This document shows, one piece after another, positions 24,774 through 56,668 of a stretch of 64,000 nucleotides of DNA; within the stretch, counting starts at the first letter, position 1, and each line of letters opens with the position of its first letter. This stretch comes from Flavobacteriales bacterium (GTDB lineage: Bacteria > Bacteroidota > Bacteroidia > Flavobacteriales_D > JAUILH01). A model generated the notes under the pieces. It was given only the letters and a program-made list of their open reading frames with translations. It made no database searches and was not told the DNA's origin. The stretch is from the NCBI GenBank assembly GCA_964230215.1, contig CAXRGQ010000007.1:789531-853530 (forward strand). Direction: 5' to 3'. A program made the position numbers and the translations under genes.

Positions 24774-27700
24774 TTATCTCACTACAGTTACATGACCAAT
24801 GTACTCATGTGGTATGTTTTTATGGTCAACCGTTTTAATTAACCAAACATATACATCTAACTTAACTGTTCTTCCACTGCGTGTATCCGTTCCATCCCAT
24901 CCATAATCTGGACTGTGAGATTCGAATACAATTTGTCCCCATCTATCAAAGATGTACATTTCAAACTGATTATCAGTAAGACCGACACCAACAGGGTAGA
25001 ACACATCATTCATACCATCACCATTAGGTGTAAATGCGCTTGGTGCGAATAGAATGTAATCTCCTTCAACATACACTTCATATGAGATTTGATCTGTACA
25101 ACCAAACTCATTTTCAACCGTAAGCGTTACATCAAAGTATCCAGTGTCAGTATACGTATGAATAGGGTTTTGATACGTTCCAATCGTGTGTCCATCATTT
25201 GTTCCTACTGGCACTGCTCCTGGAGTTCCGCTAAGCGTATATCCATCACCAAAGTCCCAGTTGTACACAGTAGCACCCGAGCTTGAATCCGAGAATGTAA
25301 TTGTTGGATTCAACATAGTGGTAATCGCCGGATCCATTCCAAAATTAGCTATTGGAAGTGGATGAGATGTTACTATCTGACTTGCTGTCATAGAAGCAGT
25401 ACATCCATCTGCAGACTCCACTGTCATACAAACATCATATGTTCCAGGTGTGCCGTACGTATAAGTTGGATTTGAATTAGGTCCAACATAATCAACGGTT
25501 CCATCACATTCAAAGTCGAATGAGTAGTTAACACCGATATCCGAGTTAGCAATGAACTGAGCTGTGAATGGTGAACATCCAGACGAATCAACTACATTCA
25601 AGAATGCAGATGGATTAGGATTCACAATTACTTCAACTGAGTCTAACACATCTAAGCTACAACCATCTCCCGTGGTTACATAGTACCATCCAGAAGCTAG
25701 TGGGTTAAGTGTTATAGTAGATGAGTTGCCATTCTGTGTACCTGCAATTGGATTACCTTGATCGTCTACCCAATCAAATGTGTAAGGTCCACCATTACCA
25801 TCTGAAGCCGTAACCGTTAAATCAATCTGATCTCCGTCACAAATAGATGTATCTGGTGTTATAACAGTTGCAATTGGAGGTAGAACTGTGATATCGATAC
25901 AACCTAAGCCAGTACTTGGACAACCATTTGCATCTGTAATATCAAAGCAATATTGAGTACTTGTTAATGGATTAACCGTAATTGGTCCCTGACCATTCAA
26001 GCCTGGTGTTTGCCAGATGATGTTGTAAGGAGGTGTACCACCTTGTCCGCTTGCCCATAACTGAGACGAATCACCATAACAAATGGTCGCGTCTAAATCT
26101 GGAACAGGACTTAGTGGCTGTGGCTCAATAAGAGTTGCACAATTTGTAGCCTGACACCCGTTTGCATCTTGAATAGTAACACAATATGTGCCATCTCCAA
26201 GCGCCACTGCTGGGTTCGAATTTTGGTTAAACGCTGCTGCATCCCACTGATAGGTAATTGTACCAGTACCACCACTGTGAAGTACTTCAAGTGATCCGTT
26301 TGATAAACCATTACATGTTGGAGGTGTTAAGTTAAATCCATCAATAGTAGGAGCAGGCTCATCGGTTACAGTAATTGTAATCGTTTCTGTACATCCTTGC
26401 GCATCTGTCACTTCAACAGTGTGTAAACCTGCAAGTAGTCCAGTGTTAGTTTGTGAAGTCAAGTTACTTCCTCCAGATAGCCACTGGTACGTATACGGTG
26501 CTGTACCACCAGTTGGGTTCACCGTTGCGGTTCCATTAGCCTGAGAACATGTCGAGTTAGTAGAGCTTCCAGTTAGTGTTAATAGAGGTGGCTCTGTAAT
26601 CGTCACACTAATGTTTGCTGGACATCCGTTTCCATCTGTTACGTCTAAATCATACGTTCCTGCACACAATGCACTTGCCGTTGGGCCGTTAGACACAACA
26701 GGAGTCCATGCATAAGTATAAGGAGGTGTAGCACCACTTGCCGTAATCGTTACTGTACCATCGCATGCACCGTTACAACTAACATCTACCTGGTTAGTAT
26801 TTGCTAATAATAGTTGCGTTGGTTCAGTGATCGTTACAGTACTTGAAGTACTACAATTGTTCGAGTCAGACACTATTACGTTATAAGTACCCGCACATAG
26901 CCCTGTATTGGTTGCTGCTGTAGTGTTTGCACCGGCATTCCAGTTGTATGTATAACCTGTCAATACAGATGGCAGTCCACCACTCACAGATACAGTTGCT
27001 TGGCCATCGCATCCCAAATAACAACTAACATTTGTTTGTGATGTAATTGCACTGTTTATCTGATTTGGTTCTGTAATACAAATGGTGCTAAAGTCAATAC
27101 ATCCCGCAGCATCTGTAGCCATAAGAGTATAGCATCCACCATCAAGACTAGTAGTTAGGGTTTGCCCTGTGTTAACAGAGTTGTTGTTCGCATCAAGGAG
27201 CTCTAATGTTGATGTACCAGTTCCCCCTGTAACAGAGAATTCAACCATACCATCCATGTCACCAAAACATGTCACATTCATTGAGTCAACATTATCTACC
27301 GTTGGACCAACAATATCGCTAATACATAGTAAGCTATCTTTAATACATCCGTTTGCATCTACAATTGTTATCGTATAACATCCTGCAGGAATGTTTGGTA
27401 ATGTCGCAGATGTTGTTCCGTTAGGATCACTCCATTGATATGTAAATGGTGCCACACCACCTATAACATTGACGCTCATAGATCCATTCGATTGACCGCA
27501 GTTAGAATTAGTAAGCGTAGCTGCAAAGTCAAGTTCGTTTGGTTGTGTTATAATTACGGTCTCAGTAATAATACATCCATTAGCATCTGTAATTGTACAT
27601 GTATATGTTCCTGCACATAAGTTGATTGCACTTGCCCCAGTTTGGAATGCAGGGTCGTCCCATTGATAATTAAATGGAGGCGTACCACCTTGTAACAACA

Positions 27701-30700
27701 CATTAGCTGATCCATCGCAGGCATTGAAACAAGACACATTAACACTTGTTGATGAAATGGTTAACGGGTTAGGCTCGATGATAGTCACCTGAGCAGTTGC
27801 CGTACATCCGTTAGCATCTGTAACCGTTGCCACGTATGTGTTAGGACAAAGATTAGTCGCTAATTGATTAATTCCCGCGTTATTACTCCATTGATATGTA
27901 TATCCAGGAGTACCGCCTGCTTGATCAACTTGTGCGAATCCATCACATGCACCACTACATGTTACATCTCCTTGCTGGGAAATGTTTGCCGTTAATAGTG
28001 GCGGTTCTGTAATGGTAACTGATACTGTTGTGAAACAGCCATCCGCATCTGTTACTATACAAGTATAAGTTCCGGGGCACAAATTAGTTGCTGTGGCAGT
28101 CGTTTGTGCCATCGGATCATCCCATAGATATGAGAACGCACCCACACCGATTATACCAGTTGCCGTTGCCGTTCCATCACATACTCCATTACAAGTAACA
28201 TTAGATGAAGTAGCGTTGGCTGTAACTTGTGCTGGATCAACCAATGTTACGTTATCTGTAGCGATACATCCATTAGCATCCGTAATATTGACAACATAAT
28301 TACCAGAGCATAAATTTGGAATACTATCATTGGTGCCAATTACAGCTCCTGCTCCGTTAACCCAAGAATAAGTGTAACCTGGAGTTCCGCCTGTAACATT
28401 AACCCAAGTACTTCCATCACAGTATCCGAAACATACAGGATCGGCACCATTCGTAATATATGATAGATCTGTTGGTTGATTTATAGTAACATTTGTACTT
28501 GCCGAGCATCCAAGATCGTCGGTAATGGTAACAGAGTAGAATCCAGCACTTAAGTTGGATGCTGTTGGTGTAGTCTGGTTACCAGCGTTAGCATCCCATT
28601 GCACTGTGAATGTAACACCTGCTCCACCCACCATGTCTACAGTGGCTGTTCCGTTGTTGCCTCCAAAACAAGAAACATCTGCTGAAGCAATAATTGCTGC
28701 TGTTGGACCACTTAAGTCACTAATTTCAACTGCTATCTGTTCAACGCACCCGTGATCATCAGTAACATCAACAATGTATGTGTTTGCTGCTAAACCAACC
28801 GCACATGAGTTTGTTGAGTTATTTGGCCATAAATATGTATAAGGAGCAGTTCCTCCAGAAGCAATTACGCAACCTTGACCATCCGCCTGATTACAGTTTG
28901 CATTAACTACGGTTGAGTCAAGTAGAATTGGGCTCGGAGTAGCAACCTGAATAGAATCAATAATAGAGCACCCATTGTCATCAGTTACTGTCACTGCGTA
29001 CATTTGTGAACAAAGTCCAATTGCCGTTTGCGTAATTTGATTTAGCGGATCATTCCACTGATAGTCATATCCTGCAATTGCCGTTCCGCCGGCAGGAGTT
29101 GCTATTATAGAACCATTGCAGTCACCATGACAGTGAACAGGATTCTGATTAAGTGTTAGCGATAATGCGGTAGGCTCACCTACTGTAACATTTCCAGATG
29201 TTGACAAACACGTATTTGCATCCGTTACTTCAACGTAGTAATCACCAGCACATAATCCAGTTGCGTTCTGAGTAGTTTGCCCGATTGCTATACCCGTGTT
29301 TGCGTCAAACCACTCATAGGTAAATGGTGCAGTTCCGCCTGCCATTGATACACTTACTTCTCCATCGCAGGCGCCATTACATAGGGCATCTGATACATGC
29401 ACAGACGTAGCGATTCCTGGAGGAATGTTTCCAACTGTGGCTGTGGCTTGTGCCGAACATCCATCTGCATCCGTAACAGTCACGGTATATGTGTTTGGTG
29501 CTAAGTTAATTGCTGTTTGAGTAGATTGACCAGTCGGGTTCCATGCATACGTTAGCTGGCCTACACCACCTTGCACAATGTTTACTGTTGCAGATCCTGT
29601 AAGCGTATTACAGAATGCATCAACATCAGATGTTGTAAGTATTATTTCGAGTGGTTCTCCGACTGTTCCGGTAACAACAAATGTACATCCGTTTGCATCA
29701 GTAACAATACAGTCATATGTTCCTGGGCAGAGTCCAGTAGCAGTATTTGTAGTCTGAGCGCCTGGATCATTCCAAAGGTAAGTGTAAGGTCCAGTTGCAC
29801 CTGAAGCTAACACCGTTAATGAACCATCACAATCTCCATAACAAGTTACATCAACTGTTGTTTGAATTACCGCGTTTAATGCTGTTGGTTCTGTAATTGT
29901 AAGACTTGTAGATGCGATACATCCATTTGCGTCTGTCATTTCTGCAGTATAAGATCCTGCACATAGGTTATTAATGGATGGCGTTGTTGAGATTCCGCTT
30001 ATCGGATTATTCGCTGCATCAAACCATTGATAGTTTACTGGAGGAGCCCCACCAGTAACTTGTACCTGAGCAAATCCATCACAAGCACCATTACACGTTA
30101 CGTTGGTAACTGTTAAAGGAGTAATAGTTGGAGATCCAAGGTTTTGCACACAAACATTCTCAGTTGCTGTACAACCGTTGCCGTCAGTTACTGTTACATC
30201 ATAACATCCGGCCGCTAAGTTTGTAGCTGTTGCTGTTGTTTGATTTCCGGCAGCTGCATCCCATTGGTACGTGTATGCAGGGTCTCCTTGAGTAACGGTA
30301 ACTGTTGCATCCCCATCCGTTTGCCCACAGTTTGCACCATTAGAAGCGCTCGTTAAGATTAGTTCTGTTGGCTCAGTTATAATAACTTGATCGTTAAAGG
30401 TACACCCATTTGCATCCGTAATAACTAAGTTATAAGTGCCTGCGCATAGGTTTGTGATCCCAGCTGTTGTACTAAGCGCAGGGTCATCCCATTGATAGGT
30501 ATATGCACTTACTCCACCAGATACATTTGCTGTAGCATCACCATCACAAGCTGCAAAACAAGAGTTATTGTTAGATGCTATGGTGTTAGCTAATGCCGCT
30601 GGTTCGGTCAATGTTATCGGTACAATTACTTGACAGTTGTTAAAGTCTGTTATTGTCACATTATAAGTTCCAGCACACAAATTGTTCACTGCTGCAGACG

Positions 30701-33700
30701 TGCTTCCAGTTGGGTCATCCCATTGATAAGTATATCCTGGTGTTCCGCCAGAAGCGGTAACATCAACACTACCATCGCATGCTCCATTACACGATATATC
30801 TTCACCATTGTAAGATGAAGTCACTGATGTGATCCCACTAAGTGCGGTAGGAGAACCCACAGTGACATTGGCACTAGTAGTTGAGCCTCCGTTGGCGTCA
30901 GTAACTTCAACATAATAATCTCCTGCACATAAGTTGTTAGCAGTGATACCCGTTTGCCCCGGCATAGGGAACCCTGTCGCAGCATCAAACCATTGGTAGG
31001 TGAACCCACCAACACCACCTGACGCTGTTACTGTTGCAGAACCATCACAAGCTCCTGCACATAATTCATCTGTGCTTGTCAATACTGTATTTATACCATT
31101 TGGCTCATTAATAGTAACACAAGTGGTATCTGTACACCCTTTAACATCAGTTGCGATTACAGAATAGGTGCCTGCAGCCAGTCCAGTGGCGTTAGTTCCT
31201 GTTTGACCAGTTGTAGTTCCTGGAGGGCATCCATTAAACCACTCATAAGTATAGTTTGGTGTTCCTCCCGCAGCGCTAGCATCTGCTGTTCCGTCTGCTG
31301 CTCCATTAATCGTAGCGTCTGTACTTCCAGTAATGGTTACCACGACAGGTGTTGGTTCAGTTATAGTGATTGTAACATTATCAACACATCCATTAGCATC
31401 TGTTACAGTCACCGTATATGTTCCTGCACACAATCCAGTACCAGAGTCAGTTCCTTGACCAGCTCCCGGTGCAGGGTTCCAGTTGTATGAATATGGCGCA
31501 GCTCCTCCCGTTGCTGTTACGGTTGCAGTACCATCACAAGCCCCTGTACACGACACTTCTACTTGGTTGAAGATTGAAATAGTAGGTCCTGCATTGTTGT
31601 TGACACCAACAGTAGCAGTACCAACACATCCATTATCGTCAGTTACAGTTACTGTGTATGTGCCGCCAGGCACAGTATTTGGGTTGGCCACTGGGTTATT
31701 TGCAGCATCTACCCAAGTTTCGTTAACATAAGTTCCTGATCCACCCGTTGTAGACACAACCGAAATGCTACCGTCTGCCTGTCCACAGTTAGCATCTGTA
31801 GAAGTTACGGTTGGAACGATAAGCGCCGGTTCTGTAATCGTTACTGATGTACTAGCAGTACATCCATTTGCATCCGTCGCCTCTACATAATATGTGCCGG
31901 CGGTAATTCCTGTTAATGGTGTGCCGGTGCCAACAGAATTAGTTAGTGCGGCATTATCAAACCATTCAAAAGTAATAGCTCCTGTTCCGCCTGAACCCGT
32001 TGCAGAGACTTCTCCATCTGCACTTCCGTTACACAGAGCATCAACCCCATTGGCGTTAACTACCACAGCAGTTGGTTCAGTAATAATTACCTGTGTTGCC
32101 ATTGTACAACCCACACCGTCGGTAACAATCACGTCATAAGTTCCTGCTTCCAAGTTTCCTGGGTCTTGTGTAGTACTTGTGAATCCATTAGGGCCTGTCC
32201 ATGCGTAAGTAAATGCAGGATTCCCCCCAGTTATAGTTAAGTCAATAGAACCGTCCGTACCTCCATTACATGACACGTCAATTTGCGTAGTTGATACAGT
32301 TCCTGCAGTATTGTCAACTACGTTTACTGAATTATTGGCAGTACATCCATTTGCATCCGTAACCTCTACATAGTAAGTGCCCGCAAGAAGGCCAGTAAGA
32401 TTTGCTCCTGATCCAACATTGTTGGTTAACGCTGGGTCATCATACCACTCATACGTCAATCCTGGCGTGCCACCGTTTCCGTTTGCAGTTACTTCACCAT
32501 CAGCTTGTCCACAGTTAGAGTTAACACTAACCGCGTTTACTGTCAATGCTGCTGGTTCAGTTGGGGTGAATGTTTCAGTTGCAGTACATCCATTTGCATC
32601 CGTAATCGTTACAGTGTAAGCTGTTCCTCCAGTTAAACCAGAAACACTATTCGTGCCCTGACCAGCGCCCGGAGCAGGCACCCAGTTGTAATTTAAACCA
32701 CCGGCACCTCCACCTGCTGTTACAGTTGCCGTGCCATCTGCCGCACCGTTACATGAAACATTTGTGCCGGCTATTGAAGAGGTGATCGCAGTTGGTTCAT
32801 TAATCGTAACCGTTTCAGAAATTGTACAACCATTATTATCTGTTATGTCTAATGTGTAAGTCCCTGCACAGAGAACACCCGTTAAATCTTGTGAGGTAGG
32901 ACCATGTTGCCATGCAGCAGTATAAGGGGCTGTTCCACCACCAACGGTTGCATCTGCTGATCCGTCGCAAGCACCATTACAGTTAGCGTCAGTTCCATTA
33001 ATAGTTAGCGTCATTGGCGTTGGCTCCGTGATAGTCACAGATGCACTTGCTGTACAACCATTATTATCAGTAATATCTAAGGTTGTATTTCCAACACAAA
33101 GTGCGATTGCTTGTTGTGCGGACTCACCATTACCCCAAGTATAGGTAATTGGAGCAGCTGCGTTATTAACAGTTGCAGTTGCTGCACCGTCGCAAACACC
33201 GTTACATTGTGCGTCTTGATCAACATTAATAGTAATTGTTGGGTCTGGATCTGTGCCGATAGTTACTGTTGCTACATCAGAACAACCAGAATTATCAGTC
33301 GCTGTAAGTGTATATGTTGTGCCTCCGCATAAACCTGTTGCGTTAGGAGTACCTTGACCACCACCTGGCGCAGGATTCCATGCATAGGTAATTGGTGCAC
33401 TACCACCTGCAACTGTGAAACCTGCGGTTCCATCACAAACCATCGAACAGCTTGCATTCGTTTGACCCGCTAGAGTTAATGCTGGACCAGCAAGACCTGA
33501 TACGGATATTGTTGCAGTACCTGTACAGCCATTATCGTCTGTAACGGTAACAGTATATGAACCTGCAGGAACGGCATTTGGATTACCAACGACATTCGTA
33601 GTTGCATTATCTACCCATACGGTAGAAACGTATGTGCCGGATCCACCTACTGTACTATTGACGATTAGTTGTCCATCTGAAGCCCCACAGTTGGCGGGGT

Positions 33701-35651
33701 TTGAAGTAACGTTAACAACAATTGGAGCAGGGTTATTTGGTGTAAACGATTCAGTAGCAGTACATCCATTTGCATCTGTAATTGTCACGGTGTAGGTCGT
33801 TCCTCCAGCTAAACCTGTAGCTGCATTAGTTCCTTGACCACCACCAGGCGCAGGATTCCAGTTATAATTTAATGCTCCTGATCCACCGCTAGCAGTAACA
33901 GTTGCTGTTCCATCAGCGACTCCAGCACATGAGGCATCTGTACCATTTATAGAAGAGGTGATCACAGGAGGCTCAGTAATTGTATAAGAGTCTGTTGAGG
34001 TACATCCGTTAAGGTCTGTGATGGTAACAGTATATGTTCCAGCGCCAAGACCTGTTTGATTCGCGCCATTCATGTTACCAGGCATCCAATTATATGTATA
34101 ACCGGGTGTTCCACCTGCACCATTTGCTGTCAGTGTCCCGTCATTCGCACCAGCACAACTCAGATTAGTACCGTTGGCAGTAACAGTTGGTTCTGGGTAT
34201 ACAACGATATTTACAGTAGCTTGATCAGTACATCCTGCGGCACTTGCATCTAAGGTAACTGTGTACGTCCCAGGGGCAGCATACGATATTCCTGTTGGGT
34301 TTTGTGCGGTTGATGTACCTGGAGTCCCGCCACCGAAATTCCAATTCCACGTTGTACCACCTGCACTGGTGTTTGTAAAGTTAAAACTATTGCCAGTTAA
34401 ACATTGATTTCCGTTGTAAGTGAAATTAGCCACCGGGTTAGGTAATACAGTGACAGTTTGTGTGATCGTTCCCGTACATCCCGTTGCATTGGTAACGGTG
34501 AGTGTTACATTGTAAGTCCCAGGTGCTGCATAGGTGTGTGTTGGATTTTGCGCGGTTGATGTTCCTCCATCGCCAAAGTTCCAGTTATAGCCAGTAATAG
34601 CTGAACCACCATTGGCATTGGATGTATTGGTAAATGTTGTAGCAACACCATCACATACATTTGGTGCCGTAAAGTTCGCGACTGGATTAGGGTCTACGTT
34701 GACGCATACCGTATTTCCAGTGGCCGTAAGACCTCCACAGCCAGTTACGACAGGCCTAAAGCATGTATTGGCTGTTATTCCCGCAGTGTTGTAGGGGACT
34801 GTTGTTGCACCACCGATATTTGTCCATGGTCCTCCTGCACCAGGAGCAGATTGCCATTGCACATTTCCTGCATGACCGACCAGGTTGAGTGAGACAGGGG
34901 TGCCGGAACAGACCGTAGTGGCAGATATGCTGGCCGTACCAGCGACGGGGGGGGGTAATACATTGATGGTTATGGATGCTTGATCTGTAAAGTTACTACA
35001 CTGTTCTGTGGCAGTGACCGTGTACGTAGTAGTTGTTGTGGGGCAGACGACAATGTCCTCCGTGGTTTGTCCGGTACTCCAGCTCCACGTGTCGGAGAGT
35101 CCGCATCCTTGAATTACACTTGCGTCTAGCGTAACACAGTCACCTGAGCAAATAGTGGTGGAGCTTGCTGTTATGCCCACAACTAAAGGTTGAGTTGATC
35201 CCGGAACTGTGAAAGTTTGTGCCGCTGTCCATGGACCTACTGCCCCGTTATGGTTTTCACGCATTCTATACTGATACGTCAAACCTGGGCAAAGTCCAGC
35301 AAATGGAATCGTAATGCCAGGATAGTTCTGTACTGTACAGTTTGGCTTTTCCATTGTAGCCGATTGGAAATATGGATAGGTGCTTAACGGTCCATGAAAA
35401 CCTGGTGCAAAAGGAGCTGCATCAAACGGCTCATTCATACAACGCACCTCTAAATCAAGCCAATATACATCACAGCCACATGTAGGACTGTCGGAAGCAG
35501 CATTTACAAATATACTATTTGCGTTAATGGTTTGCTGGTTGAAATTAATAAGGGCTATCGCGTGACAAGCCTCAGCTTTTTGAGTATTAAAAGTCAGCAA
35601 TACACCCCAGAGGACTAGCGCCCTGAGTAGAGTAGATTTAATCATAAGCAT
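24774..35651 (-). CDS. Giant cell-surface adhesin: PKD + SprB-type repeats + T9SS type-B C-terminal domain
   Basis: 3625 aa. Signal peptide. N-terminal PKD units (NWNFGDGGTSTAQNPTHTYAAPGTYNVTLTV). About 35 tandem ~75-aa repeats (counted by eye) with C-[NA]-G-x-x-DG...D-x-NGC. C-terminal PKD units, then FTPNGDGMNDVF...DRWGQIVFES...WDGT. Confidence 0.9.
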   Translation of the reverse strand: MLMIKSTLLRALVLWGVLLTFNTQKAEACHAIALINFNQQTINANSIFVNAASDSPTCGCDVYWLDLEVRCMNEPFDAAPFAPGFHGPLSTYPYFQSATMEKPNCTVQNYPGITIPFAGLCPGLTYQYRMRENHNGAVGPWTAAQTFTVPGSTQPLVVGITASSTTICSGDCVTLDASVIQGCGLSDTWSWSTGQTTEDIVVCPTTTTTYTVTATEQCSNFTDQASITINVLPPPVAGTASISATTVCSGTPVSLNLVGHAGNVQWQSAPGAGGPWTNIGGATTVPYNTAGITANTCFRPVVTGCGGLTATGNTVCVNVDPNPVANFTAPNVCDGVATTFTNTSNANGGSAITGYNWNFGDGGTSTAQNPTHTYAAPGTYNVTLTVTNATGCTGTITQTVTVLPNPVANFTYNGNQCLTGNSFNFTNTSAGGTTWNWNFGGGTPGTSTAQNPTGISYAAPGTYTVTLDASAAGCTDQATVNIVVYPEPTVTANGTNLSCAGANDGTLTANGAGGTPGYTYNWMPGNMNGANQTGLGAGTYTVTITDLNGCTSTDSYTITEPPVITSSINGTDASCAGVADGTATVTASGGSGALNYNWNPAPGGGQGTNAATGLAGGTTYTVTITDANGCTATESFTPNNPAPIVVNVTSNPANCGASDGQLIVNSTVGGSGTYVSTVWVDNATTNVVGNPNAVPAGSYTVTVTDDNGCTGTATISVSGLAGPALTLAGQTNASCSMVCDGTAGFTVAGGSAPITYAWNPAPGGGQGTPNATGLCGGTTYTLTATDNSGCSDVATVTIGTDPDPTITINVDQDAQCNGVCDGAATATVNNAAAPITYTWGNGESAQQAIALCVGNTTLDITDNNGCTASASVTITEPTPMTLTINGTDANCNGACDGSADATVGGGTAPYTAAWQHGPTSQDLTGVLCAGTYTLDITDNNGCTISETVTINEPTAITSSIAGTNVSCNGAADGTATVTAGGGAGGLNYNWVPAPGAGQGTNSVSGLTGGTAYTVTITDANGCTATETFTPTEPAALTVNAVSVNSNCGQADGEVTANGNGGTPGLTYEWYDDPALTNNVGSGANLTGLLAGTYYVEVTDANGCTANNSVNVVDNTAGTVSTTQIDVSCNGGTDGSIDLTITGGNPAFTYAWTGPNGFTSTTQDPGNLEAGTYDVIVTDGVGCTMATQVIITEPTAVVVNANGVDALCNGSADGEVSATGSGGTGAITFEWFDNAALTNSVGTGTPLTGITAGTYYVEATDANGCTASTSVTITEPALIVPTVTSTDANCGQADGSISVVSTTGGSGTYVNETWVDAANNPVANPNTVPGGTYTVTVTDDNGCVGTATVGVNNNAGPTISIFNQVEVSCTGACDGTATVTATGGAAPYSYNWNPAPGAGQGTDSGTGLCAGTYTVTVTDANGCVDNVTITITEPTPVVVTITGSTDATINGAADGTADASAAGGTPNYTYEWFNGCPPGTTTGQTGTNATGLAAGTYSVIATDVKGCTDTTCVTINEPNGINTVLTSTDELCAGACDGSATVTASGGVGGFTYQWFDAATGFPMPGQTGITANNLCAGDYYVEVTDANGGSTTSANVTVGSPTALSGITSVTSSYNGEDISCNGACDGSVDVTASGGTPGYTYQWDDPTGSTSAAVNNLCAGTYNVTITDFNNCQVIVPITLTEPAALANTIASNNNSCFAACDGDATANVSGGVSAYTYQWDDPALSTTAGITNLCAGTYNLVITDANGCTFNDQVIITEPTELILTSASNGANCGQTDGDATVTVTQGDPAYTYQWDAAAGNQTTATATNLAAGCYDVTVTDGNGCTATENVCVQNLGSPTITPLTVTNVTCNGACDGFAQVQVTGGAPPVNYQWFDAANNPISGISTTPSINNLCAGSYTAEMTDANGCIASTSLTITEPTALNAVIQTTVDVTCYGDCDGSLTVLASGATGPYTYLWNDPGAQTTNTATGLCPGTYDCIVTDANGCTFVVTGTVGEPLEIILTTSDVDAFCNTLTGSATVNIVQGGVGQLTYAWNPTGQSTQTAINLAPNTYTVTVTDADGCSAQATATVGNIPPGIATSVHVSDALCNGACDGEVSVSMAGGTAPFTYEWFDANTGIAIGQTTQNATGLCAGDYYVEVTDANTCLSTSGNVTVGEPTALSLTLNQNPVHCHGDCNGSIIATPAGGTAIAGYDYQWNDPLNQITQTAIGLCSQMYAVTVTDDNGCSIIDSIQVATPSPILLDSTVVNANCNQADGQGCVIASGGTAPYTYLWPNNSTNSCAVGLAANTYIVDVTDDHGCVEQIAVEISDLSGPTAAIIASADVSCFGGNNGTATVDMVGGAGVTFTVQWDANAGNQTTPTASNLSAGFYSVTITDDLGCSASTNVTINQPTDLSYITNGADPVCFGYCDGSTWVNVTGGTPGYTYSWVNGAGAVIGTNDSIPNLCSGNYVVNITDANGCIATDNVTLVDPAQVTANATSSNVTCNGVCDGTATATGIIGVGAFSYLWDDPMAQTTATATNLCPGTYTCIVTDADGCFTTVSVTITEPPLLTANISQQGDVTCSGACDGFAQVDQAGGTPGYTYQWSNNAGINQLATNLCPNTYVATVTDANGCTATAQVTIIEPNPLTISSTSVNVSCFNACDGSANVLLQGGTPPFNYQWDDPAFQTGASAINLCAGTYTCTITDANGCIITETVIITQPNELDFAATLTNSNCGQSNGSMSVNVIGGVAPFTYQWSDPNGTTSATLPNIPAGCYTITIVDANGCIKDSLLCISDIVGPTVDNVDSMNVTCFGDMDGMVEFSVTGGTGTSTLELLDANNNSVNTGQTLTTSLDGGCYTLMATDAAGCIDFSTICITEPNQINSAITSQTNVSCYLGCDGQATVSVSGGLPSVLTGYTYNWNAGANTTAATNTGLCAGTYNVIVSDSNNCSTSSTVTITEPTQLLLANTNQVDVSCNGACDGTVTITASGATPPYTYAWTPVVSNGPTASALCAGTYDLDVTDGNGCPANISVTITEPPLLTLTGSSTNSTCSQANGTATVNPTGGTAPYTYQWLSGGSNLTSQTNTGLLAGLHTVEVTDAQGCTETITITVTDEPAPTIDGFNLTPPTCNGLSNGSLEVLHSGGTGTITYQWDAAAFNQNSNPAVALGDGTYCVTIQDANGCQATNCATLIEPQPLSPVPDLDATICYGDSSQLWASGQGGTPPYNIIWQTPGLNGQGPITVNPLTSTQYCFDITDANGCPSTGLGCIDITVLPPIATVITPDTSICDGDQIDLTVTASDGNGGPYTFDWVDDQGNPIAGTQNGNSSTITLNPLASGWYYVTTGDGCSLDVLDSVEVIVNPNPSAFLNVVDSSGCSPFTAQFIANSDIGVNYSFDFECDGTVDYVGPNSNPTYTYGTPGTYDVCMTVESADGCTASMTASQIVTSHPLPIANFGMDPAITTMLNPTITFSDSSSGATVYNWDFGDGYTLSGTPGAVPVGTNDGHTIGTYQNPIHTYTDTGYFDVTLTVENEFGCTDQISYEVYVEGDYILFAPSAFTPNGDGMNDVFYPVGVGLTDNQFEMYIFDRWGQIVFESHSPDYGWDGTDTRSGRTVKLDVYVWLIKTVDHKNIPHEYIGHVTVVR
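26130..34195 (-). repeat. Coding tandem-repeat region (SprB-type repeat units, ~225-235 nt period)
   Basis: Recurrent DNA blocks such as catccatttgcatccgtaa and protein blocks such as YTVTITDANGCTATE. Higher-order duplicated multi-repeat blocks are visible. Boundaries are approximate. Confidence 0.75.
34947..34955 (-). repeat. Homopolymeric tract (G9 on +, C9 on the coding strand) inside the giant adhesin gene
   Basis: Read directly: agcgacGGGGGGGGGtaata. It encodes Pro-Pro-Pro (NVLPPPVAGT) at about codon 233. Confidence 0.95.
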
Positions 35652-50132: not shown

Positions 50133-51734
50133 TTACTTGATTAAGGCGCCTCCATGCTTATGCACATGCTTTCCTTGTTGTTCAAGTTGGTATTCAATTT
50201 CTCCTACTACTTCTTGGCCATCATTGTCGATATGGATCACATTTTCAAAATCAATCATCACTCGATCGCCATCTATTTTTTGAACGAGACTTCTAAGCCC
50301 AGCTTTACTTATAAATGAAATCCTTTCTGACAAGACAATTACATCTTCGACTCTACCATGTTTGTCTTCCCTCTTTTCTAGCTTACCACCCCTAATCATG
50401 GCTATTAAATGACCAAAAGATTTAACCTCATTTAAAAATATTGTTATTAGTAAGGCAATTGCAAAACCAATTCCAATGCCCGTTAAGAGGTCAGAAAAAA
50501 GAATTCCTCCGATGGTAGCGATGAAAGGCACAAACTGCATCCATCCACGCTGCCAATAATCGCGATAAAGGCTAGGTTTTGATAGTTTCATACCAATTAC
50601 AATTAATACAGCCGCCAGAGAAGCCAGTGGAATATAATTCATTAGCGACGGGATTAATAAAACACTCAATAATAACAGCCACCCATGCAAGAAAGCTGAC
50701 AATTTTGATTTGGCACCATTTTGAGCATTGGCAGAGCTACGTACAATCACCTGAGTAACGGGTAAACCACCTAAAAATCCACTTACAAGATTGCCGGCAC
50801 CTTGTGCAAGTAGTTCTTGGTTTGGGTTACTTCTCCTCATTTCAGGGTCTAATCTATCAGCAGCGTCTAAACAAAGTAAGGTTTCTAAACTGGCCACAAC
50901 AGCAAGTGTAATGGCGGCAGTATAAACCTTAGAGTCCTGTAATGCATCAAAATTTGGGAACATATAGAATACATCTCCTAAACCAGATATTTCTGGTAAA
51001 GTTACTAGGTGTGATGAACTAACAGCCATAGAAGTTCCCTCGACAGCGGCAACAAACACGGCACCAAGAACAACAATCATTAGTGGAGCAGAAATAATCT
51101 TTGTAAAACTCTGTTTTTGCATAAATTTTCTTGACCATAGAAGGGTTATTAGCAAGCCAAATATGAAAACCAATGTCGGAGATTGTGTGATCGCGTCATG
51201 CATGTCGAAAATCTCTGTAAAGGTGTTTTTACCGTCTGCTTGATCAAAATCTATATCGCCTTCGTAATCTTTGTCATATCCGAAGGCATGGGGAATTTGT
51301 TTTAAAGTAATAATCAGTCCAATTCCAGCTAGCATACCATTAATTACAGCACCTGGGAAAAAGCCGACCATATTACCTAGTTTAACGAGCCCAAGTATTA
51401 CTTGAATTACCCCTGCAAGAACTACAGCAACTAGGAACAACTCAAAACCACCCTCTTCACCTGCAAATCCTTGAAAGTAGGTAATAGCTCCAGCAACAAT
51501 AGTTACTAATCCTGCTGCGGGACCGCTAACGCCAAGTGCGCTGTTACTAAAAAACGTAACAACAATACCTCCAGCAATTCCTGCTATAATACCTGATAAT
51601 GGTGGTGCACCAGAAGCTAGTGCAATTCCTAAACAAAGTGGCAAGGCCACTAAAAATACAACCAATGCAGCTGGAATATCTCTTTTTAAATCGCTGCCCC
51701 AGTTGAAAAAACCTTTCTTATTATTTGATTTCAT
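50133..51734 (-). CDS. SulP-family inorganic anion transporter with a C-terminal STAS-like domain
   Basis: 533 aa. Polytopic, with SulP-type N-terminal motifs (ALPLCLGIALASGAPPLSGII) and a soluble C-terminal domain. Confidence 0.8.
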   Translation of the reverse strand: MKSNNKKGFFNWGSDLKRDIPAALVVFLVALPLCLGIALASGAPPLSGIIAGIAGGIVVTFFSNSALGVSGPAAGLVTIVAGAITYFQGFAGEEGGFELFLVAVVLAGVIQVILGLVKLGNMVGFFPGAVINGMLAGIGLIITLKQIPHAFGYDKDYEGDIDFDQADGKNTFTEIFDMHDAITQSPTLVFIFGLLITLLWSRKFMQKQSFTKIISAPLMIVVLGAVFVAAVEGTSMAVSSSHLVTLPEISGLGDVFYMFPNFDALQDSKVYTAAITLAVVASLETLLCLDAADRLDPEMRRSNPNQELLAQGAGNLVSGFLGGLPVTQVIVRSSANAQNGAKSKLSAFLHGWLLLLSVLLIPSLMNYIPLASLAAVLIVIGMKLSKPSLYRDYWQRGWMQFVPFIATIGGILFSDLLTGIGIGFAIALLITIFLNEVKSFGHLIAMIRGGKLEKREDKHGRVEDVIVLSERISFISKAGLRSLVQKIDGDRVMIDFENVIHIDNDGQEVVGEIEYQLEQQGKHVHKHGGALIK

Positions 51735-52152: not shown

Positions 52153-52557
52153 TTAGTCTTCCAATCCATGACCAGAATCAGATTGTTCTACTCTTTTGAG
52201 AAAATAATTCCAATCATTTTTATCACACATGGATACTGAAATTCTAACGCGTTCCTTGTTTCCATCTGAGTTTAGGTAGAGTTTTTTACCATCTAAATAG
52301 AAATCTGATAAGGACTTGAATCCATAGGTTTTGTGAACGGTGCCAAATAATGAATAATGTATGAATTGCTGTCCCCGTATTTCAAAATAGTCGTTTTGAA
52401 GATATAGCACACCCATGATAAGGCAAATTACTGCTGGCACAAAGTTTAAAATAGGAACATTTACATCCATGTACATTCCCAGGCCAAAAATTGCAATGGC
52501 TACTAAGCTTAAAATCACGAATAGATAACCCCAAATCTTATTATATCCTATTGTCAT
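52153..52557 (-). CDS. Hypothetical membrane protein
   Basis: The ATG at 52557 (MTIGYNKIWGYLFVILSL...) is preferred to the longer 52650 start, which would overlap the divergent Cys-rich ORF. Two TM helices plus a soluble domain. Confidence 0.4.
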   Translation of the reverse strand: MTIGYNKIWGYLFVILSLVAIAIFGLGMYMDVNVPILNFVPAVICLIMGVLYLQNDYFEIRGQQFIHYSLFGTVHKTYGFKSLSDFYLDGKKLYLNSDGNKERVRISVSMCDKNDWNYFLKRVEQSDSGHGLED

Positions 52558-52638
52558 AAAGTTTTTTTGCGTCTTTTTTGACCTTTCTGCGTCTACATAG
52601 GTAGAATCAACAAAAATAGTAATCATAAATATTACAAG

Positions 52639-52788
52639 ATGAAAGATCAAGATAAATTAATGAAAGACGGGACTTGCACATGTGAAAACTGTCAATGTAC
52701 CCAATGTGACTGCAATGGTAAGTGTGATAGCTCTTGCACTTGCGAAAAATGCGATTGCACGAATTGTAATGATTCATGCTGTGCATAA
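52639..52788 (+). CDS. Metallothionein-like Cys-rich micro-protein (49 aa, 14 Cys); absent from the ORF track
   Basis: Hand translation: MKDQDKLMKDGTCTCENCQCTQCDCNGKCDSSCTCEKCDCTNCNDSCCA*. The CxCxxCxCxxCxC pattern occurs twice. A 13-bp-stem terminator follows. Confidence 0.65.
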   Translation: MKDQDKLMKDGTCTCENCQCTQCDCNGKCDSSCTCEKCDCTNCNDSCCA

Positions 52789-52807
52789 TACAGACAGGAC
52801 TTATAAG

Positions 52808-52845
52808 AGTTCCGATATGACTTGTTCATGTCGGAACTTTTTTTT
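52808..52845 (+). terminator. Strong rho-independent terminator after the Cys-rich ORF
   Basis: agttccgatatga-cttgt-tcatgtcggaact (13 bp including one G:U) followed by T8. Confidence 0.85.
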
Positions 52846-52866
52846 ATCTTAAATAATAATTTAACA

Positions 52867-53412
52867 ATGGATTCAACCACAAATGTCTGGAACAAGTTTC
52901 ATGAGAATGTGCATAATTTTGTGCGCAAGAGAGTGGATGTAGATGCAGACATTGATGACATTGTACAGGAAGTTTTTGTTAGAATCCATCTTAAGAAAGA
53001 GAGTGTTAAAGATGACGCTAAACTCCAATCTTGGATTTATCAGGTTACACGGAACACAATAGCGGACTTTTATAGACAAAAGCAGAAAGAGGGCTATAAA
53101 CAGGACGAAACACCAGATATTGAAGATCAGGATGTGGGATTCTACGGAAAACAAGAGATGTTTTGTTGTCTGCACCCCTTTGTTGATGAACTACCAGATA
53201 AATACAGGGAAGCTTTAAAAATGTCTGATTTGGAAGGCAAAAAACAACAAGAAGTAGCAGACATTTTAGGTATATCTCTCTCAGGTGCTAAATCTAGGAT
53301 TCAAAGGGCACGCGAAATACTGAAAACCAAGTTTGTAGCATGTTGCAATTTCACCTTAAATGAGGAGGGTGAGCTAGTAGGAGAACAAGATTGTGCACGT
53401 TGTAATCCATAG
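52867..53412 (+). CDS. ECF-type sigma-70 factor (SigZ-like) with a Cys-rich C-terminal extension
   Basis: The ATG at 52867 (MDSTTNVWNKF...) is preferred because the 52822 start lies inside the terminator. Sigma-2 (IVQEVFVRIH, WIYQVTRN) and sigma-4 (ALKMSDLEGKKQQEVADILGISLSGAKSRIQRAR) regions. Cys at FCCLHPF and the C-terminal ACCNF...DCARCNP. Confidence 0.75.
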   Translation: MDSTTNVWNKFHENVHNFVRKRVDVDADIDDIVQEVFVRIHLKKESVKDDAKLQSWIYQVTRNTIADFYRQKQKEGYKQDETPDIEDQDVGFYGKQEMFCCLHPFVDELPDKYREALKMSDLEGKKQQEVADILGISLSGAKSRIQRAREILKTKFVACCNFTLNEEGELVGEQDCARCNP

Positions 53413-55198: not shown

Positions 55199-56668
55199 TT
55201 ATTCTAGACTGGATAGGTAAGAATTAGCGAGATTAACGTGATTTTCTAGCTTGTTTTCATCCATAGATTCTAGATGTCTGGTTAACATTCCTAAACGTGG
55301 ATTACCCTCAAAAAATGAACGCTGTTTATGCATAAAACGCCAAAACAAGCCGTCCCATATTTCCTCCCAGTCACCGGACTTATAATTACTCATCTTTCGC
55401 AAATAATTGCTTGAGGAAATATATGGTTTTGTTGCAAATAACCCACCATCGGCAAATTGACTCATAGAGTACACATTTGGCACCATTACCCAGTCATAAG
55501 CATCTATAAATAGCTCCATAAACCACCGATATACTTCATCAGGGTCAAATTCACATAAAAGCATGAAGTTTCCCAATACCATAAGTCTTTCAATGTGGTG
55601 GCAATATCCCGTGTTTAGAACTTTTTTGATGGTATCATCTATGGGGGCAATTCCAGTTTGCGCATTATAAAAGCTTTGCGGGATTTTGCGCCTGAATCCC
55701 CAGAAGTTAGTAGTGCGCATTTCAGCACCTTTGCATGTATACATGCCGCGCATGAACTCACGCCATCCAATAATTTGTCGTATGAAGCCCTCCAGACTCT
55801 GAAGTGGGACCTTGTTGTTATTTGCAAATTCAATGGCCTTTTCTACAATTTCAAATGGTTTTAACAAACCAACATTAAGCATTGGTGTTAAAACACTATG
55901 ATGCAGGAAACTGGACTCTTTTACTATTGCATCCTCGAAGGGCCCAAATTCAGCGAATCTTTGTTCTAAAAAATGATTGAGCCACTGCTGACTTTGTGCA
56001 ACATTGTAAGGATAGATTAACTCCGCTAAGTTTCCAGGGTTATCATTGAAGTTTGTATTGGTATAACTGACAGCTTCATCCCAATTTAAGTCTGATTCAG
56101 GTAAATGAATGCTCGGGGGAATTTTGCCTTTAGGATATTTTTTTCTGTTATCTGAATCGAACGTCCATTTGTCTCCTTGAGGTTTACCGTCTGAGTCAAC
56201 TAAAATATTGAGTCGTTTTCTTTCCTTCTTGTAAAATGTGGTTTGATGAAATGACTTTTTATCAGACCTAAAATATGCTTCAAGGTCTTTACTAGAATTG
56301 ATAAATAGCGTGGATGAATACTCGATCAATTCTATACGTGCTTCAATTGCTGCTTTTTTTGTGCGAGTGTCAAGCCAATTATCTATAGGATTGATGTATC
56401 CCAATGCTGTGTACCCCTCTTCAGCTAGCATTGAGATCAAGACTCTAATATCAGATGCTTCAGAAGTCGATTCAACATACCTAATTACTTTGTTGGCCAG
56501 ACTATGTTCAAAGGTCTTCATACTGGCCCGATGAAAGGCTATTTTTTGTTTATGGAAATTGTATTGTTTGAAGAACAGGAATTCCTCAATTATGATGACT
56601 TTATCAAAATCATTTAGTGATGGATGATCTAAATCGAGCTGATGTGGGAATATTAGTAGTGCTTTCAT
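55199..56668 (-). CDS. Cryptochrome/photolyase-family protein of the bacterial (6-4)/FeS-BCP (COG3046-like) type, without the Fe-S cysteines
   Basis: 489 aa. Motifs [23 protein letters not shown] and [16 protein letters not shown]. Only three Cys in the whole protein. The ATG overlaps the upstream stop (ATGA). Confidence 0.7.

Follow-up and report, generated by a model that had tools for sequence, protein, structure and literature searches.

A conserved cysteine-rich peptide gene ahead of sigZ in Bacteroidota, encoding a candidate metallothionein-like thiolate sink

The 64,000-nucleotide stretch of contig CAXRGQ010000007.1 analyzed here (hereafter the window; Flavobacteriales bacterium, assembly GCA_964230215.1) encodes, at positions 52639-52788 of its forward strand, a 49-residue peptide with 14 cysteines, directly upstream of the gene for a SigZ-type extracytoplasmic function (ECF) sigma factor. 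The peptide gene is a real gene: purifying selection acts on it, sigZ is its constant companion, and it lies behind a motif that is specific to sigZ neighbourhoods. We propose, with a probability of roughly 0.58, that the peptide acts as a metallothionein-like thiolate sink for soft metals and metalloids and is encoded by the leading cistron of a SigZ-driven unit. The features of this module, in window coordinates, are:

52564..52598, plus strand: ECF-type promoter motif, conserved in 13 loci and described by a position weight matrix (PWM)
52592..52605, no strand: short palindrome TCTAC-atag-GTAGA, lying over the -10 element and the expected start of transcription
52639..52788 (stop included), plus strand: Cys-rich peptide gene, identified by translation, homologues, purifying selection and frame openness
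52805..52845, plus strand: intrinsic-terminator-like hairpin from a terminator scan (arms 52805-52820 and 52826-52841, 5-nt loop)
52867..53412, plus strand: sigZ, SigZ-type ECF sigma factor of 181 aa (TIGR02959, Sigma70_r2, Sigma70_r4_2)

Translation of 52639-52788 (+) gives MKDQDKLMKDGTCTCENCQCTQCDCNGKCDSSCTCEKCDCTNCNDSCCA, followed by a stop, and bears out the 49-codon open reading frame (ORF) with 14 cysteines and no aromatic residues that a first-pass annotation, made from the sequence without database searches, had described here. Cysteine makes up 28.6% of the peptide (14/49; residues 13, 15, 18, 20, 23, 25, 29, 33, 35, 38, 40, 43, 47 and 48), Phe, Trp, Tyr and His are all absent, and the mass is ∼5 kDa. 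The full Cys pattern is CxCxxCxCxxCxC...CxCxxCxCxxCxxxCC. The first-pass annotation had counted the arrangement CxCxxCxCxxCxC twice; a duplication is indeed present, but its unit is the shorter CxCxxCxCxxC, as the longer form is complete only once (residues 13-25) and the second copy (residues 33-43) reads CxCxxCxCxxC and is followed by xxxCC. The N-terminus is hydrophilic, and the peptide is presumably cytoplasmic because it has no signal peptide. Metallothioneins are operationally defined by the Kagi/Fowler criteria, and the metallothionein-like make-up suggested earlier agrees with all of those that concern composition: size (<10 kDa; 49 aa in the window and 35-52 aa in the homologues), Cys content (28.6%, within the ∼15-35% in CxC, CxxC and CC arrangements) and scarcity of aromatic residues (none in the window peptide; one His in locus L016, and one His and one Tyr in the Cys-rich ORF of locus L019, see below).

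A chance origin of such an ORF had been considered very unlikely, and the numbers agree: 14 cysteines within a 37-aa stop-free stretch have a binomial P of 2e-12 (2.6e-7 when corrected for all positions), and in a shuffle control (n = 30) the top Cys count per 37 aa was 5-8, never exceeding 8. The off-frames of a giant ORF elsewhere in the window (3625 aa, 24774-35651, minus strand) yield many moderately Cys-rich pseudo-ORFs (e.g. 29880-29963, with 10 cysteines in 28 aa), so composition alone is insufficient and conservation is decisive.

Homologues were obtained by using the downstream sigma factor as an anchor, from a single protein match (P0001) and from a metagenome scan. The family census is small, with 14 loci, namely the window and 13 homologous ORFs (L001, L002, L003, L004, L006 and L009-L016); other SigZ loci number ∼10. 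The hosts are a Parvicellaceae metagenome-assembled genome (MAG) for L001, a Bacteroidia MAG for L002, a Flavobacteriales MAG for L003, Pontibacter for L004 and Kaistella palustris for L006, and L009 to L016 come from metagenomes. Cultivable carriers are Kaistella palustris DSM 21579 and Pontibacter sp. HSC-36F09. Twelve Cys columns are invariant in a nine-sequence alignment (A2), with TGT and TGC mixed at nearly every Cys column of the family, and positions other than Cys are conserved too (e.g. G27, D30, an EKC motif and D45-S46). Among the six members of 49 codons, the proportion of synonymous differences (pS) is 0.70-1.08, which is saturated, versus 0.03-0.33 for non-synonymous differences (pN); L001 and L002, for example, are separated by 20 synonymous and four non-synonymous differences. 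The first-pass annotation had named conservation in relatives and the ratio of non-synonymous to synonymous change (dN/dS) as checks on the gene, and it passes both: the ORF and its Cys pattern are kept in 13 homologues, and selection is strongly purifying. Moreover, the peptide frame is the sole stop-free frame of the six across all 14 loci, and for this reason a spurious ORF or an antisense gene is ruled out. The ORF list does contain an antisense ORF (52692-52895, minus strand), suspected from the start to be spurious, and stops interrupt its frame in many homologous loci; the start of the sigma factor was likewise correctly taken as over-extended, since the list carries a TTG-extended ORF at 52822-53412 and homologues start at ATG 52867.

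The family is essentially invisible, or almost so, to protein databases and current annotation. A word-index protein search with the window peptide alone returned zero matches, and one with the family profile returned only P0001; this protein is the one match (E = 1e-7) among 1.84 billion representative proteins. Exact look-up of ten members among ∼15 billion proteins found all of them absent, including those from the RefSeq isolates of Pontibacter and Kaistella; the window peptide is also absent from the protein collections by exact look-up, and two of 600 stretches were confirmed among the matches listed by a metagenome pattern scan. Nine members searched against Pfam at E values up to 10 matched no family (PF02069 and eukaryotic metallothionein models such as PF00131 included), NCBIfam gave no match for the peptide or the family profile, in its models of precursors of ribosomally synthesized and post-translationally modified peptides (RiPPs) as elsewhere, and the PDB, searched by phmmer and by family profile, gave no metallothionein at E values up to 10. 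Comparisons by BLASTP with hand-entered sequences of human MT2A (E = 2.6) and SmtA (E = 0.11) were not significant. A plasmid tblastn search with the peptide gave no match, possibly due to the low-complexity filter, and Rfam gave no meaningful match around the locus. With no PF02069 match and no His, the peptide is unlike the SmtA/BmtA type of bacterial metallothionein, as had been noted at first sight.

The partner gene is well defined. Its product scores 189.8 bits against the SigZ model TIGR02959 (cut-off 168.65) and 198.5 bits against NF007215, which is under the cut-off of 212, and contains the domains PF04542 and PF08281 only. The linker between sigma2 and sigma4 carries two adjacent cysteines (FCCLHPF), and the C-terminus, CCNFTLNEEGELVGEQDCARCNP, is Cys-rich (CCNF...CARCNP). 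Immediately downstream of each of the 13 peptide homologues is a SigZ orthologue (36-71% identity). The gap between the two genes is 38-98 nt in eleven loci (including the window), 6 nt in L015, -1 nt in L016 and 361 nt in L003, where one lipoprotein-like ORF is inserted; this ORF of ∼100 aa (L003 2702-3000; MVRIAVLSLLFYAGACK...) lies between the peptide terminator and sigZ, and L003 is the sole locus with such an insertion. At L019 a Cys-rich ORF that is not homologous to the family ends 2 nt before sigZ. No neighbour other than sigZ is conserved in the homologous loci, and no anti-sigma-like gene is conserved beside sigZ in these neighbourhoods. The impression of a discrete gene in the first-pass annotation thus gives way to that of the first cistron of a peptide-sigZ unit, with the two genes abutting or overlapping in L015, L016 and L019.

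In 13 loci the peptide gene is preceded by a 35-nt motif of fixed spacing, TTTTTGCGTCTTTTTT-N9-(G/C)NGTCTAC. The window copy consists of a -35-like TGCGTC (52568-52573) followed by a T-run, a 16-nt spacer and a -10-like CGTCTA (52590-52595), and TGCGTC-N16-CGTCTA has ECF geometry and a CGTC-type -10 element. By a leave-one-out PWM the window site scores 48.6 bits, the runner-up in the 64 kb scoring 8.2, and over 174.5 kb of collected loci all hits of at least 24 bits are beside sigZ. Autoregulation is the rule among ECF sigma factors, and the usual way to find their promoters is to look for motifs over-represented beside their genes (PMC3817407). Because of this, and because the motif sits beside sigZ, TGCGTC-N16-CGTCTA is most simply read as the putative SigZ promoter, with the peptide gene as its first target. 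The palindrome at 52592-52605 could serve a second regulator as its operator; equivalent palindromes (GTCTA-N-TAGAC) are found in L001, L003, L011, L012, L013 and L014.

The hairpin begins 16 nt after the peptide stop, and its T-run ends 21 nt before the sigZ ATG. It had been described as a terminator with a 13-bp stem and T8; the hairpin and the T8 (52838-52845) are there, but the stem (52805-52841) has 12 pairs before the T-run, or 16 if pairs with the T-run are included (folding free energy -23.1 kcal/mol; z-score -5.3 to -5.8). Where the spacer is at least 38 nt, a hairpin is found just past the stop in 11 out of 11 loci (L003 included), with unrelated sequences and with z-scores of -2.3 to -5.7 in ten and -1.0 in L013. 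It is absent in L015, L016 and L019, where the Cys-rich ORF is still present. The hairpin probably keeps the peptide:sigma ratio high, either by terminating part of the transcripts or by stabilising the mRNA 3' end. With only 21 nt from the T-run to the ATG, no separate sigZ promoter fits, and transcripts of sigZ must arise by read-through or start at a promoter farther 5'.

Peptide-less SigZ loci, whose sites formed no part of the PWM training set, carry the motif as well. In two Arenicellales-like loci (L017 3055-3089 and L018 3055-3089) it scores 32 and 31 bits and lies between sigZ and the arsenite methyltransferase gene arsM (NF008823, 370 and 376 bits; cut-off 263). A 34-bit site in Fodinibius (L005 4113-4147) is upstream of the gene for an ArsI/CadI metalloenzyme (NF041414, 129 bits; cut-off 116), and a weaker one of 17.9 bits (L007 4358-4324, minus strand) precedes another ArsI/CadI gene (NF041414, 122 bits). 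L023, on a Hymenobacter plasmid, has the motif immediately 5' of sigZ, its spacer being shorter by 1 nt; arsC and ACR3 lie at a distance of 2 kb. This motif lies between sigZ and an upstream gene (L023 2764-2928) for a 54-aa RefSeq 'hypothetical protein' (WP_162303730.1), which we rejected as an equivalent of the peptide: the protein is not rich in cysteine, and its GC-rich ORF seems spurious. L021 (Desulfobulbaceae) showed no convincing copy of the motif, the contexts of L026 and L027 were uninformative, and a flavoprotein in L020 was not counted as an arsenic gene (ArsO), with 47.5 bits against a cut-off of 425. The gene contexts suggest that detoxification of arsenic or soft metals is under the control of SigZ-type sigma factors; in the literature searched, no paper linked SigZ with arsenite.

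Two further loci carry Cys-rich ORFs of their own. At L019 (2358-2498; Puniceicoccaceae, Verrucomicrobiota) an ORF of 46 aa with 16 cysteines (MSEEIKNVKKCCTEEENYCVCKCCCTCCCDSQSCCHPKKDEVKSCC) lies between the motif and sigZ, and at L020 (2660-2848; a Bacilli MAG) the motif is found 3' of sigZ and is followed by a 62-aa ORF with nine cysteines (CC, CC, CGC, CC). Neither aligns with the Bacteroidota family, and both look like convergent equivalents of the window peptide. Non-homologous Cys-rich products thus recur in this slot, and thiolate chemistry is therefore favoured over a specific protein-protein interface.

SigZ has been placed in group ECF238 together with CorE2 (PMC7826278); sigma factors of this group work without anti-sigma factors and make use of cysteines of the C-terminus and the linker, and CorE2 is activated by Cd and Zn (PMC7826278, PMC4937300). 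By analogy with CorE2, a thiophilic metal or metalloid (Zn/Cd/Cu or As(III)) would engage the linker and C-terminal cysteines of SigZ and activate it with no anti-sigma factor involved. RNA polymerase carrying SigZ would then, as comparative genomics predicts, initiate at the 52568-52595 promoter. The anatomy of the unit suggests that most transcripts would stop at the hairpin and its T8, giving abundant peptide mRNA, and that a fraction would read through into sigZ for positive autoregulation. The 14 thiolates of the peptide (two CxCxxCxCxxC, C29 and the terminal CC) would bind the metal or metalloid in clusters, and the lowered free concentration would turn SigZ off again, a negative feedback. 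As(III) and Cd are as plausible as Zn or Cu, because the motif precedes arsM and arsI/cadI; either of the first two, in place of Zn or Cu, could be the actual ligand, or the peptide could have a more general thiol buffer role. Three thiolates typically coordinate As(III), which mammalian metallothionein also binds.

Several points weigh against this proposal. A CxC between sigma2 and sigma4.2 is required in CorE-like sigma factors (PMC4937300, PMC8999054), and by the strict criterion for that group (former ECF44) the window SigZ does not belong to it, having CC. ECF238 is considered heterogeneous, with CxC confined to former ECF44, and a metal response has never been demonstrated for SigZ-like (former ECF24) members (PMC8999054). 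No metal-resistance gene adjoins the module in the window, and the AlphaFold model of the peptide is uninformative, with a pLDDT (predicted local distance difference test) of 53, as expected for an apo-thionein. With so strong a terminator, sigZ transcription might not depend on the peptide promoter. Finally, motif matches of 12-16 bits precede glutathione S-transferase (GST) genes on plasmids of Microbulbifer (L024 3532-3566) and Vibrio cortegadensis (L025 1009-1043), and an aldo/keto reductase gene on a Priestia megaterium plasmid (L022 2955-2921, minus strand). We treat matches of 12-16 bits, all of them beside annotated sigZ, as leads only; those at the GST and aldo/keto reductase genes hint at a broader SigZ regulon for thiol-reactive stress.

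A bolder proposal extends the metallothionein-like sink to the whole set of loci. SigZ-type ECF sigma factors would be direct, anti-sigma-free sensors of thiophilic metalloids or metals (As(III), methylarsenite, Cd) through their linker and C-terminal cysteines, and one conserved promoter would drive outputs that differ by lineage: arsM, arsI/cadI or convergent, unannotated Cys-rich 'thionein' peptides (in Bacteroidota, Verrucomicrobiota and some Bacilli) that sequester the toxicant and close the negative feedback loop. On this view the window peptide would be the founding member of a new family of bacterial metallothioneins and would supply the second component that the ECF238 circuit has lacked. 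We advance this only tentatively, as possible and on the whole doubtful.

The alternative that survives best is that the peptide is a regulatory partner of SigZ and not a bulk chelator, acting as a small anti-sigma factor that responds to metal or redox state, as a co-sensor or as a metallochaperone, and sharing a metal site with the linker and C-terminal cysteines of the sigma factor. It would release or load SigZ on thiol oxidation, alkylation or metallation, and would be an overlooked regulator of ECF238. The strict adjacency to sigZ in 13 out of 13 homologous loci is what such a partner would show, as are the overlapping or abutting genes in L015, L016 and L019, and an ECF sigma gene is usually transcribed together with that of its regulator (PMC3817407). 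ECF238 is also a group with no known anti-sigma factor, an un-annotated peptide would escape genomic-context surveys too, and the CC-linker variant of SigZ is found in the clade that bears the main peptide family. However, the peptide has almost no hydrophobic residues for a helical anti-sigma domain, its equivalents in L019 and L020 are non-homologous and alike in Cys richness only, and the same promoter and Cys features are present at SigZ loci without any peptide. The terminator, moreover, favours an excess of peptide over sigma factor, the opposite of stoichiometric pairing. We consider a regulatory partner unlikely; a zinc-binding anti-sigma factor (ZAS) was rejected, the peptide having no His, no HxxxCxxC and no Pfam anti-sigma domain.

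Somewhat less probable again is that the peptide is sacrificed to buffer thiol-reactive stress not caused by metals (e.g. electrophiles, carbonyls, quinones, oxidants or hypochlorite), with SigZ sensing the same stress by modification of its cysteines. The matches before GST and aldo/keto reductase genes beside sigZ fit this idea. Many Bacteroidota probably lack glutathione, and an encoded thiol sink would be sensible in them. But the strong motif matches (31-34 bits) are those before arsM and arsI/cadI, genes with a specific role against arsenic or heavy metals, the regular, conserved CxCxxC spacing is typical of metal-thiolate clusters, and a stoichiometric protein scavenger would be a costly way to quench electrophiles.

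The order of the elements brings to mind a leader: 14 Cys codons, a terminator 16 nt on and sigZ 21 nt after it, with a hairpin that is kept in structure and not in sequence. Ribosomes stalling under limitation of Cys or Cys-tRNA would then control sigZ by attenuation, and the peptide itself would be functionless. This fails on the evidence above and is very improbable: non-Cys residues are conserved, the three loci without the hairpin keep their Cys-rich ORF, and no mutually exclusive structures appear, as the hairpin stays intact with no competing antiterminator when the whole transcript is folded. In addition, the stop is too far 5' of the stem for a ribosome stalled in the Cys codons to mask it. 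Least credible of all is a precursor of a secreted or modified Cys-rich peptide (a bacteriocin, a RiPP of the SCIFF/ranthipeptide kind or a disulfide-rich toxin), which a short hydrophilic N-terminal segment before a Cys-rich core and a Gly-Gly right before the first Cys in L001, L002 and L004 might recall, but which we rejected as the GG is not conserved (GT in the window; SN, QN or NN in others), no NCBIfam precursor model matches, there is no signal peptide, and sigZ is the only conserved gene nearby, with no radical-SAM enzyme, lanthipeptide enzyme, ATP-binding cassette (ABC) transporter with a C39 peptidase or other maturase.

The remaining neighbours of the module in the window are:

50133-51734, minus strand: SulP permease
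52153-52650 as called, minus strand: membrane protein, 134 aa from ATG 52557, no family match
in the flanks: ORF of 96 aa
53708-55060, minus strand: NDH-2
55199-56668, minus strand: photolyase-related protein

The divergent ORF at 52153-52650 is probably over-called, its real start being ATG 52557; from the TTG start it crosses the conserved promoter and 12 nt of the peptide ORF.

The metallothionein-like sink, the reading we prefer, would add a conserved Bacteroidota family to the very few bacterial metallothionein families. The loci also provide the first candidate promoter and targets (the Cys-rich peptide, arsM and arsI/cadI) for the SigZ/ECF24 part of ECF238, by which the physiological role of SigZ becomes directly testable. 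If true, a sigma factor with an on-board Cys sensor and a thiolate sink would form a compact metal(loid) feedback loop, of interest to metal homeostasis, arsenic biogeochemistry, small-protein discovery and synthetic biology.

Among known systems, the beta and alpha domains of vertebrate MT-1/2 share with the window peptide a mass of ∼5 kDa, ∼30% Cys in CxC, CxxC and CC, the absence of aromatic residues and His, and a duplicated Cys module, and we take its C-terminal ...SCCA to resemble the ending of vertebrate metallothioneins. There is, however, no detectable sequence relationship, and the window peptide is bacterial, acidic and amide-rich, and presumed to be under sigma factor control. MymT, the Cu(I) metallothionein of Mycobacterium tuberculosis, has fewer cysteines than the window peptide and contains His; it belongs to a different phylum and showed no homology in any search here. 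Like the window peptide it is very small and lineage-restricted, was overlooked in annotation and is recognised by its Cys motifs (PMC7387436).

CorE and CorE2 of Myxococcus xanthus (ECF44, now ECF238) are of the same group as SigZ, have no anti-sigma factor and carry cysteines in the linker and the C-terminal extension, but their CxC linker is essential where SigZ has CC, and their C-terminal cysteines number six versus four in SigZ. Their targets are efflux pumps and oxidases rather than a metallothionein, and no Cys-rich peptide partner is reported for them; in the literature searched we found no metallothionein described as partner of an ECF sigma factor, CorE-like or SigZ. RsrA-SigR is similar in that the gene of a small Cys-containing protein lies beside an ECF sigma gene and thiol chemistry is the signal. 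RsrA is a helical protein of ∼105 aa with HxxxCxxC and a hydrophobic sigma-binding face, and the window peptide has neither this helical build nor the motif or the face.

Reviews of bacterial metallothioneins name only SmtA/BmtA (including PmtA of Pseudomonas) and MymT (PMC12193353, PMC7387436), and no reported metallothionein from Bacteroidota turned up in the literature searched. BmtA/SmtA (PF02069, regulated by SmtB) resemble the window peptide as small Cys-rich bacterial cytoplasmic proteins with a presumed role in soft-metal sequestration and a regulator gene adjacent. SmtA has 8-9 cysteines together with His ligands, aromatic residues and a zinc-finger-like fold (PMC12193353), whereas the window peptide has 14 cysteines, neither His nor aromatic residues, and no match to PF02069. 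The regulator also differs, being a repressor of the ArsR/SmtB type for BmtA/SmtA and, presumably, an activating ECF sigma factor for the window peptide, which may thus represent a new metallothionein-like family with a new mode of control, by an ECF sigma factor and not by an ArsR/SmtB repressor.

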